Positions 7,463 to 40,448 of a stretch of 64,000 bases of DNA are shown here, one piece after another (positions within the stretch are counted from its first letter, which is position 1; the number at the start of each line of letters is the position of its first letter). The notes under the pieces are model-generated. The model did not search any database. It was not told where the DNA came from and saw nothing but the letters and a program-made list of their open reading frames with translations. Source of the DNA: Escherichia coli (lineage in GTDB: Bacteria > Pseudomonadota > Gammaproteobacteria > Enterobacterales > Enterobacteriaceae); NCBI RefSeq assembly GCF_016903815.1, contig NZ_CP069973.1, one strand, 5' to 3'. Both the position numbers and the translations under genes were made by a program.

Positions 7463-9445
7463 TTACCATTGATAACTCACGAAAATTTTTCCATTACGAC
7501 CATCCTGTGGGATGCCTTGTGGCGACCAGTACTCTTTGTCGAAAGCGTTACCCAACACCAAAGTAGTGGTCATACCTTTGAGCGCCTGTTGTCCTTGATA
7601 ACTGACGTAGAAATCATTCACGCCATAGCCTGGTTGTTTGCTGTAACTGCTGCTGATATGTGTTGAGCGATCGGCAAACGTACCAACCCACCCAACAGAG
7701 AAGCCACTGTGAGCGATCGGAATATTCAGGGTACTGGTAACGGTATCCGGGTTAATGCTGGAGATATATTCCCCAGTATCGGTGTCTTTGCCGCGGGTAC
7801 GGTTATAGGCCACATCAAGGCTAAACAGATCAGTGGTATATTTCGTCATTACATCCCAGCCCCAGATTTTGGCGTTCGGGACGTTATACGACATAGTTGT
7901 CGCCGCCGCGAAATCGACGGTCGTGGAGATGTAATCCTTCGCTTTGGTATCAAAGTAGCTGGCTTTAAATTCCAGGGTATCATTGGACAACATCAGGTCA
8001 TCAAAACGCAGCCCAAAACCGTACTCCTGAGTTTCGTTAGTTTCCGGACGTAAGTTCGGGTTTGGCACCCAATAGTTGGTATAGAAGCGACCAATCGAGA
8101 AGTGCTTAGAATCGTTATACATTTCGCCCATCGTCGGGGCGCGGAATGCCTGGGCATATGAGCCAAATAACATCAGCCAGTTAGTCGGATTGATAGTCAT
8201 CCCCGCACGAGATGACCATTTGTCGGCATCAACATCTTTGTAACCGTCACTGCTACCGCGATAACTGTCATAGCGGGTTCCGCCAAGCAGGGTAATCGGC
8301 AGATCGCGTAAGGTGATCTCATCCTGTAGCCAGCCGGAGCTAAAATCGATTTTTGCTTGCGGGAAGCCCGTCGTCGCGCCGCCCGGATGTTGTTCCTGAC
8401 GATAATACTCACCGCCATATGTCAGTAAGTGAGAAGCGAAACTGTCGGCAAAGAGAGTGGAACGGTTCTCCAGCCTGGCTCCTTTTGTTATCTGTTCACG
8501 ATACTCGCCGGAACTCCCCGTGTTTTGCGCATTAATACGGACTTCCGACCAGTAAATTTTTGCATCTGCATTTAACCAGTCGTTGCCCTGCGGGGCGAGT
8601 TTATAAGAAAGCTGCGCATCGCGTTGAATTGTTGAACGATCAACCATCGGGTTGCTGCTATCAGAAGCCTCAACAGTCTGCGGATTTTTTGGTTCACGCG
8701 CGTCGTTGTTGTAGTAACGCACTAAACCGCTCAGAGACTGGGCTGAATCAATTTGCCAGGTCCCTTTCGCCAGCATGTTATTAATGGACTCGTCATTCGG
8801 CGCGGTTTCACCATTGCTCTGGCGTAAATCACCCCGACCGCGACTGGACCAGGCCACAATACCATCCAGATTTTCAGTTCGCCCAAACGCGCTCGCGCCT
8901 AATCCCAGGCTATGGTCCCCCGTGCCGCCAGTACCAAAGACACGAAAACCACTGCTTTGTCCTTCCTGCAATAAATCTTTTGCATCGACCGTATCGTAGG
9001 AGATCACTCCACCCAGCGCACCACTGCCATACAGTAATGCTGAAGGTCCGCGAACAATCTCAACACGCTTGATCAGCGCCGGATCGAGAAAAGTGCCATT
9101 CAGGTGTCCGGTATCCGTTCCCTGGCGAACACCATCGACAAGAACCAGCACGCCGCGATGATCATAGCCACGCATATTTACATCCTGACCGTTGGTTCGT
9201 CCGGTACCATCAAGAGTAATTCCAGGAACATGACGCAGCAAATCAGTGGCTGAAGTAGCCGTTTGATTTTCAGGAGCGGAAGTGTCGATGACGCTGACCA
9301 TCATAGGCGCTTCGAAGGAACTACGGGCATTCCCCGTTGCCGTAACGGTCATGGTTTCAGTAGCAAAAGCAAACGTTGGCAAGGTGGCAGAAACAGCCAA
9401 AGCCAACAAACTCAAACGCAACGAGGTAAATTGCGGACGTGACAT
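7463..9445 (-). CDS. chuA: TonB-dependent outer membrane haem/haemoglobin receptor ChuA (660 aa)
   Basis: Signal peptide, TonB-box-like N-terminus (ETMTVTA), plug and beta-barrel, C-terminal aromatic residue (ends ...FVSYQW). Confidence 0.95.
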   Translation of the reverse strand: MSRPQFTSLRLSLLALAVSATLPTFAFATETMTVTATGNARSSFEAPMMVSVIDTSAPENQTATSATDLLRHVPGITLDGTGRTNGQDVNMRGYDHRGVLVLVDGVRQGTDTGHLNGTFLDPALIKRVEIVRGPSALLYGSGALGGVISYDTVDAKDLLQEGQSSGFRVFGTGGTGDHSLGLGASAFGRTENLDGIVAWSSRGRGDLRQSNGETAPNDESINNMLAKGTWQIDSAQSLSGLVRYYNNDAREPKNPQTVEASDSSNPMVDRSTIQRDAQLSYKLAPQGNDWLNADAKIYWSEVRINAQNTGSSGEYREQITKGARLENRSTLFADSFASHLLTYGGEYYRQEQHPGGATTGFPQAKIDFSSGWLQDEITLRDLPITLLGGTRYDSYRGSSDGYKDVDADKWSSRAGMTINPTNWLMLFGSYAQAFRAPTMGEMYNDSKHFSIGRFYTNYWVPNPNLRPETNETQEYGFGLRFDDLMLSNDTLEFKASYFDTKAKDYISTTVDFAAATTMSYNVPNAKIWGWDVMTKYTTDLFSLDVAYNRTRGKDTDTGEYISSINPDTVTSTLNIPIAHSGFSVGWVGTFADRSTHISSSYSKQPGYGVNDFYVSYQGQQALKGMTTTLVLGNAFDKEYWSPQGIPQDGRNGKIFVSYQW

Positions 9446-9734
9446 AGCGATTCTCCATGAGGAAAATAAAAAATGCTGGCTGCCTGGGTTAATACCGGGG
9501 TGGCTGGCGAAAAATAAATTTATTTAAAATTCAGAGCGATAATATTCGCCGGGTGAGTTTACAGGCGTTTATATCCCATGAAATTGCCTGGTATCTCGGC
9601 AAATACGCAAAAGCACGCCCTCTTTGTCAGGCAAAACGATATGCCCCATCAGGAGTGAAGAGCGCTGTGCGTTATCCCTTGCAAATGCTATGGTTTTGTT
9701 ATCCATATGGTCGTGTTTTGTTAAGCGCGAACGT

Positions 9735-19028: not shown

Positions 19029-19366
19029 TCAGGACATAAGCAACTGAAATTGATGGCTGGCATGACGAGGGATGCAGATGCTGATTTCATTACCCCCGGT
19101 GATTACTAAAGGAGAGGCGAAAACGACTTTATTCCCCTGGTATATGTATCCACCAGTAGAACCCTTCGTTGCCCGAATGCTGGCAGGAACTGTTGGCAGA
19201 ACGGCAACATTTTTTTTGTCGTTGACCTCACCATGTCGATCACTATGCCTGTATCCCACCTTACTGGCTGACAACCCCACTATGCCGCTGGTCTGTAAAT
19301 CCCTCATATCTCTCCTCGCGCGCAATTTAAAGAACCGTTATTTCTCAAGAATTTTCAGGGACTAAA

Positions 19367-24753: not shown

Positions 24754-24999
24754 GACTATCCCTTATATTTCATTACTGCGATTATTTCAATTTCAGTATA
24801 CTAATGAAATGATGCCAGACTGTTTCTTAGCGCAAAAACTGCCAGATTTGGTAGGACCAAAATTTATCCACAAAGTAGTTTTGCATAACAGTTAATTGAT
24901 AATAAGTAAATGCAGCACGAATATATTTTCGCACAGCGTATAGCTTATGTTTATAAAAAAATGGCTGATCTTATTTCCAGTAAAAGTTATATTTAACTT

Positions 25000-25104
25000 A
25001 CTGAGAGCACAAAGTTTCCCGTGCCAACAGGGAGTGTTATAACGGTTTATTAGTCTGGAGACGGCAGACTATCCTCTTCCCGGTCCCCTATGCCGGGTTT
25101 TTTT
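25000..25104 (+). ncRNA. gadY: Small RNA GadY, antisense to the gadX 3' end
   Basis: 105-nt stretch beginning actgagagcacaaagtttccc and ending in the hairpin cccgg...ccggg plus T-run, matching the GadY sequence as I recall it; lies on the opposite strand just 3' of gadX. Confidence 0.7.
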
Positions 25105-25121
25105 TATGTCTGAGTAAAACT

Positions 25122-38519: not shown

Positions 38520-39287
38520 TTATAGCGCCAAAACCGCCGTATTCAGCGTTTCTATCGGTGCCGGGCGTGAAAGAAACCAGCCTTGTGCGGCGAATGCGGG
38601 CGAGCTCTGAACATCACGCCACTCTTCCGGCGTTTCTACGCCCTCGACGATCACCCCGCGACAATAGCGATTCATGAGATGTAAAAGCTGAGAAAAGAGT
38701 GTGCGTCCTTCCGGCGACTGACGCAGCATCACAAACAGCTCTCGCGCGATTTTGATGTAGTCATAACGCACTTCACTTAGCGCAGAGAAATTTGCCATCC
38801 CGGTGCCAAAATCATCCAGCCACAGCGGGCCAAATTCACACATCGAGGCAAAGGTTGAATCTTTCGGCAGACGGATGTGTTCCACCAGTTCGAAACGCAG
38901 CCAGGGAAGACGCTCAATCTGGCGCAGGATTTTTGGTTGCTGACGCAGGGCGATGAGCGTAGGGCCATCAATATTGACCGATGCCAGCAGGTCATGCTCT
39001 ATAAAGAAGTCGGCTTTTTGCGCCAGTAAATCAATCTGCTCTTTCACAACCTCCATCCGATGGCTGACGGTGATTTCAGTAAAATAGCGATCCGGCGGCA
39101 GGCGTTGCGAAGGGTTCAAGGGATGCGTGACCACCGTTAATAGCTCCACGGCCATTAACCGCCCGCATGTTTGATAGATCGGCTGCCAGGTGTAAGCACG
39201 CTCACACTGCAACCAAAAACGCCGTTCCTGCAAGCTCTCGATGCTTGCTTCAGGGTTGCTTATTCGCTGGATAACCTGCCTTATCAT
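38520..39287 (-). CDS. pdeH: c-di-GMP phosphodiesterase PdeH/YhjH, EAL domain (255 aa)
   Basis: MIRQVIQRISNPEA...; EAL-domain protein (ELLTVV variant of the EAL motif). The ORF-track start at 39332 is an upstream extension. Confidence 0.9.
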   Translation of the reverse strand: MIRQVIQRISNPEASIESLQERRFWLQCERAYTWQPIYQTCGRLMAVELLTVVTHPLNPSQRLPPDRYFTEITVSHRMEVVKEQIDLLAQKADFFIEHDLLASVNIDGPTLIALRQQPKILRQIERLPWLRFELVEHIRLPKDSTFASMCEFGPLWLDDFGTGMANFSALSEVRYDYIKIARELFVMLRQSPEGRTLFSQLLHLMNRYCRGVIVEGVETPEEWRDVQSSPAFAAQGWFLSRPAPIETLNTAVLAL

Positions 39288-39430
39288 CAAAGATGTCCTG
39301 TGTTTAAAAGTGATGCTGCCCGGACTCGACAAAGATTATCGGCGCGCAAGGGCATAACTTTACCGCCTGGCCGGGTTAAATTTTCCCACTCCACAACGGA
39401 ATCTTTCAGGAATACGTTCTGGCTCAAAAA

Positions 39431-39453
39431 AATAATGGAACACTGTTTTAATA
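39431..39453. promoter_or_regulatory. Candidate KdgR operator upstream of kdgK
   Basis: aataatggaacactgttttaata resembles the palindromic KdgR consensus AAATGAAACAnTGTTTCATTT; about 65 bp upstream of the kdgK ATG. Confidence 0.45.
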
Positions 39454-39518
39454 TGGTTGACCAGCAAACCACCACAGCGCAAACTAACGCTAATTTTTTA
39501 CAGATCAGGTTCACGACT

Positions 39519-40448
39519 ATGTCCAAAAAGATTGCCGTGATTGGCGAATGCATGATTGAGCTTTCCGAGAAAGGCGCGGACGTTAAGCGCGGTTTCGGCG
39601 GCGATACCCTGAACACTTCCGTCTATATCGCCCGTCAGGTCGATCCTGCGGCATTAACCGTTCATTACGTAACGGCGCTGGGAACGGACAGTTTTAGCCA
39701 GCAAATGCTGGACGCCTGGCACGGCGAGAACGTTGATACTTCCCTGACCCAACGGATGGAAAACCGTCTGCCGGGCCTTTACTACATTGAAACCGACAGC
39801 ACCGGCGAACGTACGTTCTACTACTGGCGTAACGAAGCCGCCGCCAAATTCTGGCTGGAGAGCGAGCAGTCTGCGGCGATTTGCGAAGAGCTGGCGAATT
39901 TCGATTATCTCTACCTGAGCGGGATTAGCCTGGCGATCTTAAGCCCGACCAGCCGCGAGAAACTGCTTTCTTTGTTGCGCGAATGCCGCGCCAACGGCGG
40001 AAAAGTAATTTTCGACAATAACTATCGTCCGCGCCTGTGGGCCAGCAAAGAAGAGACACAGCAGGTGTACCAGCAAATGCTGGAATGCACGGATATCGCC
40101 TTCCTGACGCTGGACGACGAAGACGCGCTGTGGGGTCAACAGCCGGTGGAAGACGTCATTGCGCGCACCCATAACGCGGGCGTGAAAGAAGTGGTGGTGA
40201 AACGCGGGGCGGATTCTTGCCTGGTGTCCATTGCTGGCGAAGGGTTAGTGGATGTTCCGGCGGTGAAACTGCCGAAAGAAAAAGTGATCGATACCACCGC
40301 AGCTGGCGACTCTTTCAGTGCCGGTTATCTGGCGGTACGTTTGACGGGCGGCAGTGCGGAAAACGCGGCGAAACGCGGGCACCTGACCGCAAGTACCGTT
40401 ATTCAGTATCGCGGCGCGATTATCCCGCGTGAGGCGATGCCGGCGTAA
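39519..40448 (+). CDS. kdgK: 2-dehydro-3-deoxygluconokinase KdgK (309 aa)
   Basis: MSKKIAVIGECMIELSEKG..., PfkB sugar-kinase family. The ORF-track start at 39171 is a TTG-initiated extension overlapping pdeH. Confidence 0.9.
   Translation: MSKKIAVIGECMIELSEKGADVKRGFGGDTLNTSVYIARQVDPAALTVHYVTALGTDSFSQQMLDAWHGENVDTSLTQRMENRLPGLYYIETDSTGERTFYYWRNEAAAKFWLESEQSAAICEELANFDYLYLSGISLAILSPTSREKLLSLLRECRANGGKVIFDNNYRPRLWASKEETQQVYQQMLECTDIAFLTLDDEDALWGQQPVEDVIARTHNAGVKEVVVKRGADSCLVSIAGEGLVDVPAVKLPKEKVIDTTAAGDSFSAGYLAVRLTGGSAENAAKRGHLTASTVIQYRGAIIPREAMPA

Follow-up and report, generated by a model that had tools for sequence, protein, structure and literature searches.

The 21-bp imperfect dyad TAATGGAACACTGTTTTAATA at positions 39433-39453 of the analyzed stretch of Escherichia coli DNA (64 kb, referred to below as the window) is, with a probability of about 0.9, the operator by which the IclR-family repressor KdgR controls kdgK, the gene encoding 2-dehydro-3-deoxygluconokinase. 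The assignment rests on the match of this segment to the KdgR motif, on its phylogenetic footprint in Enterobacteriaceae, and on the published expression of kdgK, which depends on KdgR and is inducible by 2-keto-3-deoxygluconate (KDG). From these data we infer the exact base contacts of KdgR, the position of the kdgK promoter, and the occlusion mechanism described below. An earlier note on this DNA had read a KdgR operator here from the letters of the sequence, and this reading is now supported by the gene names, the position of the site, its outlying score on a weight matrix, its conservation, and published genetics.

Location of the Operator and Neighboring Genes

Positions 39431-39453 of the window read AATAATGGAACACTGTTTTAATA, and both the letters and the coordinates of this 23-mer had been given exactly in the earlier note. 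The 21-bp box inside it consists of the half-sites GGAAC (39437-39441) and GTTTT (39445-39449), separated by the central triplet ACT (39442-39444), with the center of the dyad at 39443. The distance from the end of the site to the ATG of kdgK (39519) is 65 nt, the value that had been estimated before, which places the box, as is characteristic of KdgR boxes, in the regulatory region of a gene of the KDG and pectin-catabolite pathway.

Gene coordinates were transferred onto the window from the RefSeq annotation of an identical E. coli genome, and the names pdeH and kdgK used earlier for the two flanking genes agree with this annotation. The regulated gene kdgK, which is also present in the list of open reading frames, occupies positions 39519-40448 on the plus strand, and pdeH, encoding a c-di-GMP phosphodiesterase, occupies positions 38520-39287 on the minus strand, so that the divergent spacer between them is 231 bp long. 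Approximately 2.2 kb around the site match E. coli chromosomes with 100% identity, and this segment occurs in 5421 of the 5426 complete genomes of the species. The operator of K-12 MG1655 is identical to that of the window and lies at about 3,679,333-3,679,353 of the K-12 chromosome.

Similarity to the KdgR Motif

Two forms of the KdgR consensus were taken from the literature, AAATGAAACANTGTTTCATTT (PMC5559549) and RWWGAAACGNCGTTTCAKKA (PMC8222616). The 21-mer TAATGGAACACTGTTTTAATA coincides with the former at 15 of the 20 specified positions and is the only match of this quality in the window. The probability of a 15/20 match falling inside the 231-bp intergenic region is 0.003, and for the degenerate core TGRAACNNNGTTYYA the expected number in the whole window is 0.08. 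As a test of significance, the counting of consensus positions was rejected as too weak, with about 0.5 matches at the 15/20 level expected per 64 kb and at least one found in 42% of dinucleotide shuffles of the window, and a weight matrix was used instead.

The symmetrized matrix was built from six KdgR-type boxes of E. coli K-12 (kdgT, two boxes of kduI, tabA, ygjV, and eda), with kdgK excluded. The training genes are named targets of KdgR or PlaR, and the boxes upstream of each of them were chosen by their match to the consensus, so that the matrix owes nothing to the kdgK site but does depend on the consensus. With 23.8 bits, the kdgK site falls among the training sites (19.0-28.4 bits) and 11 bits above the next best site in 64 kb (12.9 bits). 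None of 300 shuffled windows contained a site scoring at least 23.8 bits. Thus the earlier statement that the site approximates the KdgR consensus is borne out both by the 15/20 match and by the position of the site as an outlier on the matrix, and the candidate has the sequence of a KdgR box (AAATGAAACANTGTTTCATTT / RWWGAAACGNCGTTTCAKKA), with the top score in 64 kb.

The site contains two half-sites of the GAAAC type 3 bp apart, in the imperfect form GGAAC-ACT-GTTTT. It had been called palindromic, which is correct in that there is a dyad around 39443, but only seven of the ten arm positions are self-complementary. Because of this imperfection, an inverted-repeat finder with a 6-nt seed reported nothing in the intergenic region; similarly, a search with the consensus allowing up to three mismatches returned no match because the kdgK site carries five. 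No auxiliary or second KdgR box was found within 38.5-40.5 kb of the window besides the one described here, which makes regulation by looping unlikely.

Conservation of the Operator in Enterobacteriaceae

A genome scan with the KdgK protein, limited to the 80 closest loci (86-99% protein identity), gave sequences from Escherichia, Citrobacter, Salmonella, Enterobacter, Klebsiella, Kluyvera, Kosakonia, Lelliottia, and other genera of Enterobacteriaceae. When 300 nt upstream of kdgK were considered, the top match to the consensus was the orthologous box in 76 of these loci. Its distance from the ATG is 63-69 nt, except in locus L074, where it is 73 nt as counted from the matched start, the match to KdgK beginning at residue 3; the overall range is thus 63-73 nt. 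Another 21-mer scored highest in the four other loci, L020, L022, L048, and L049.

An alignment was made of 79 distinct kdgK upstream sequences, representing 78 loci and the window itself, with L020 left out. The pattern GGAAC-NNN-GTTTT is found in all 79 sequences, including those of L022, L048, and L049; the box is thus conserved upstream of orthologous genes, as a KdgR operator should be. The positions T36-C41 (TGGAAC) and G45-A51 (GTTTTAA), numbered here by the last two digits of the window coordinate, are invariant. The mean column conservation is 0.96 and 0.99 in the two arms, 0.74 in the center, and 0.64 in the left part of the spacer. The central triplet occurs in 11 variants, every one of which has the form R-N-Y, that is, a purine at the first position and a pyrimidine at the third, and such a center fits both published forms of the consensus, GAAACANTGTTTC and GAAACGNCGTTTC.

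Within E. coli itself, the central triplet is polymorphic, being ACT, AGC, or GGC.

Directly to the left of the box there is an A-tract, TCAAAAAAA (39424-39432), whose mean conservation in the 79 sequences is 0.97. This conservation exceeds what a symmetric operator needs, and the tract could serve as an extended operator flank or in DNA bending. No comparable tract was seen next to the other KdgR boxes of K-12. The whole segment to the left of the box, 39410-39432, starts with a partly conserved GAAnACG (39410-39416), followed by CTCAAAAAAA; inspection of this segment by eye produced no convincing match to CRP, IHF, or a second KdgR half-site.

KdgR-Dependent Expression of kdgK and Comparison with Known Boxes

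Repression of kdgK by KdgR is part of the textbook description of hexuronate and KDG regulation in E. coli. The box upstream of kdgK was reportedly first predicted by comparative genomics by Rodionov et al. in 2000 and 2004, and it is presumably catalogued in regulatory databases.

In E. coli, kdgK is described as a known KdgR target, and its mRNA is raised in Northern analysis when kdgR is mutated (Shimada et al. 2019, PMC6958661). Both kdgK and kdgT are over-expressed, according to RNA-seq, in an E. coli strain that has lost kdgR through a deletion (Sastry et al. 2019, PMC6892915). Northern analysis of wild-type Salmonella Typhimurium grown in minimal medium detects no kdgK mRNA, while KDG induces it strongly, and in the delta-kdgR strain the gene is expressed constitutively (PMC4784465). 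Further, the predicted KdgR regulon of Dickeya includes kdgK (PMC6127512). In the papers searched, neither EMSA nor footprinting nor ChIP data were found for KdgR at the kdgK operator. A literal search of this literature for the operator string retrieved unrelated eukaryotic papers only, and none of the papers searched prints the kdgK site.

For comparison, we considered the KdgR boxes of the pectinolysis regulon of Dickeya dadantii (Erwinia chrysanthemi) and those of the E. coli genes kdgT, kduI, tabA/yjgK, and eda. Like these boxes, the kdgK box is a 21-bp A/T-rich dyad with the core geometry GAAAC-RNY-GTTTC, situated upstream of a KDG-pathway gene that is derepressed in the absence of KdgR and induced by KDG (PMC6958661, PMC4784465). 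Both of its arms deviate from the consensus, with TGGAAC in place of TGAAAC and GTTTTA in place of GTTTCA. These off-consensus arms (39437-39449) are themselves invariant in the 79 aligned sequences, which suggests that selection may favor a sub-optimal or dual-purpose site. Two further differences concern architecture: kdgK has a single box whereas kduI has two, and the kdgK box is located just 5' of the inferred -35 element, in contrast to boxes lying over the -10 element or the start site.

Candidate Promoter of kdgK and Proposed Mode of Repression

The inferred -35 element of the kdgK promoter, TTGACC (39457-39462, plus strand), starts 3 bp past the end of the operator and is invariant in the 79 sequences. 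After a 17-bp spacer it is followed by the inferred -10 element CAAACT (39480-39485, plus strand), which is replaced by CACACT in most genera. The latter element matches at three of six positions, its conservation is 0.97, and its positions A2 and T6 are invariant in all 79 sequences. In a relaxed, conservation-weighted scan of the spacer, TTGACC/CA(A/C)ACT ranked first among the -35/-10 pairs and was the only conserved one; a stricter generic scan for sigma-70 promoters and terminators gave nothing over its thresholds in the region. Judging from the sequence, TTGACC-17 bp-CA(A/C)ACT is likely to be the kdgK promoter. The predicted transcription start would then be at about 39492, which corresponds to about 3,679,392 in K-12, and the KdgR box would occupy positions from approximately -59 to -39. 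No mapped transcription start of kdgK was found in the literature.

The conserved block around the inferred -10 element, CaCAgCGCAnACTA (39473-39486), is longer than the hexamer.

Regulation at the RNA level was considered and rejected. The spacer contains no Rfam family, and the predicted fold of the kdgK leader RNA is no better than that of shuffled sequences (z = 0.67), which argues for an element that acts at the level of DNA and not of RNA.

We propose that, when no inducer is present, a KdgR dimer (or a higher oligomer) would occupy the GGAAC-N3-GTTTT box, and that the bound protein, a winged-helix factor of the IclR family, would block the access of sigma region 4 and of the alpha C-terminal domains to the promoter. 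KDG, the substrate of KdgK, would then free KdgR and allow transcription of kdgK; this last step is taken from established knowledge and from the induction data (PMC4784465). Repressors that act by simple occlusion less typically bind on the upstream side of the -35 element, and this location of the box was counted against the mechanism.

Alternative Explanations

The box could, primarily or additionally, be an operator of PlaR (YiaJ), the IclR-family paralog of KdgR, so that kdgK would be co-repressed by PlaR and KdgR. We regard this as possible, though on the unlikely side. The PlaR box, ATnTGAAACnnnGTTCAnTT (Shimada et al. 2019, PMC6958661), printed with 20 letters though the paper gives its length as 21 bp, is almost equal to the KdgR box. 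When compared by hand, the kdgK site agrees with it at about 10 of 15 specified positions; the PlaR box is indistinguishable here from the KdgR motif, and KdgR and PlaR are inseparable by sequence alone. There is also binding in vitro: kdgK is among the gSELEX targets of PlaR, and the pdeH/kdgK region was one of twelve gel-shift probes, all of which were shifted by PlaR (PMC6958661). The primers of this probe map to 39281 and 39484, and the probe itself, at approximately 39281-39506, spans the box.

Several points speak against this reading. The gel shifts took 1-5 uM PlaR, and the text on Northern analysis of the plaR mutant reports rises for yiaK, kduD, eda, glpA, and glpT, with kdgK absent from this list, whereas kdgK is up in the kdgR mutant (PMC6958661). 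The YiaJ i-modulon consists of 10 genes only, with a precision of 1.0 against the YiaJ regulon, and kdgK follows the loss of kdgR. The strongest site of PlaR and its clear in vivo regulon are the plaR-yiaK spacer and the yiaK operon, and the work examined does not report that PlaR affects kdgK in vivo. It is possible that PlaR provides a secondary or cross-binding input, rather than being the main regulator of kdgK.

As printed in Supplementary Table S1a of the PlaR study (PMC6958661), both pdeH/kdgK gel-shift primers match the plus strand, at 39281-39300 and 39484-39506, and thus one of them is listed as its complement.

A second possibility, which we consider improbable, is that the site is a tuned dual-input element where KdgR and PlaR compete or cooperate, or that KdgR represses by blocking contacts of the alpha C-terminal domain with an UP element instead of by classical occlusion of the core promoter. 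This reading is derived from the off-consensus arms, which are invariant, from the conserved A-tract upstream, and from the position of the box just 5' of the -35 element, which is unusual. If true, it would constitute a mechanistic variant of KdgR control and not a new system.

It is very unlikely that the AT-rich block is promoter architecture only, that is, an UP-like element or a curved segment 5' of the -35 element with an incidental likeness to the KdgR box. The block does lie exactly at about -59 to -39 of the inferred promoter, and the conserved A-tract continues it to the left. But among the invariant positions are the G and C bases that define the KdgR half-sites GGAAC and GTTTT, and the center varies freely within R-N-Y, which is the pattern of the KdgR motif and not of UP elements. 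Further, the matrix score of 23.8 bits is an extreme outlier, and kdgK is regulated by KdgR (PMC6958661, PMC4784465) while there is no other box nearby.

Finally, it is hardly credible that the box serves the divergent pdeH gene, tying the control of c-di-GMP and motility to the availability of KDG. In favor of this reading, the box is situated inside the shared intergenic region, and the sigma-28 promoter of pdeH keeps a fairly constant spacing from kdgK. Against it, the box lies on the upstream side of that promoter, with about 70 bp between its nearest edge and the -35 element; the stretch in between is poorly conserved (0.64); the distance from the box to kdgK is unchanged in loci that lack pdeH; and KdgR-dependent expression of pdeH is not reported in the literature examined.

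The pdeH Promoter and Loci without pdeH

The sigma-28 (FliA)-type class-3 flagellar promoter of pdeH, TAAAGTTATGCCCTTGCGCGCCGATAA (39336-39362, minus strand), is a perfect match to its motif and is unique in the window, where 0.03 such matches are expected. It is a neighboring element, separate from the KdgR operator. Of the 80 closest loci, 72 have a detected PdeH homolog upstream of kdgK, and the motif TAAAGTTnT-N10-GCCGATAA is present in 73, namely in all 72 loci with pdeH and in L004. No pdeH was detected in the other eight loci, five of them from Klebsiella (L052, L057, L060, L070, and L077), plus L004, L021, and L076. All eight retain the box 64-66 nt from the ATG of kdgK, and their kdgK regulatory block is unchanged. 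The retention of the box where pdeH is absent indicates that it travels with kdgK. Hence the description of the site in the earlier note as lying in a region shared with pdeH is correct with respect to geography, the two genes having a common 231-bp spacer, and does not extend to function. In Klebsiella, yhjG seems to be the immediate neighbor of kdgK; this adjacency was suggested by an antisense open reading frame resembling the one inside yhjG of the window and refers to L052, the only locus inspected.

Other Elements in the Window

Three tandem matches to the rdlD antitoxin RNA were observed at 59844-59909, 60327-60392, and 60811-60876 on the plus strand, approximately 483 nt apart. They imply that the rdlD locus would carry three copies of the ldr/rdl toxin-antitoxin system; we take K-12 to have one copy at the corresponding locus. 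An Rfam match to the 5'-UTR thermoregulator of shuA/chuA (9443-9474, minus strand) indicates the probable presence in this strain of the chu heme-uptake locus, which we assume to be absent from K-12. Full-length Rfam matches were obtained for two small RNAs, GadY (24997-25110, plus strand) and ES205 (19146-19217, plus strand).

Significance of the Site

The segment 39433-39453 is the known KdgR operator of kdgK, an ordinary, well-conserved repressor site and not a new one, and its significance beyond annotation is small. The additions made here are modest. They consist of the 79-sequence footprint, which fixes the half-sites, the R-N-Y center, and the likely promoter of kdgK, and of the evidence that the site belongs to kdgK rather than to pdeH.
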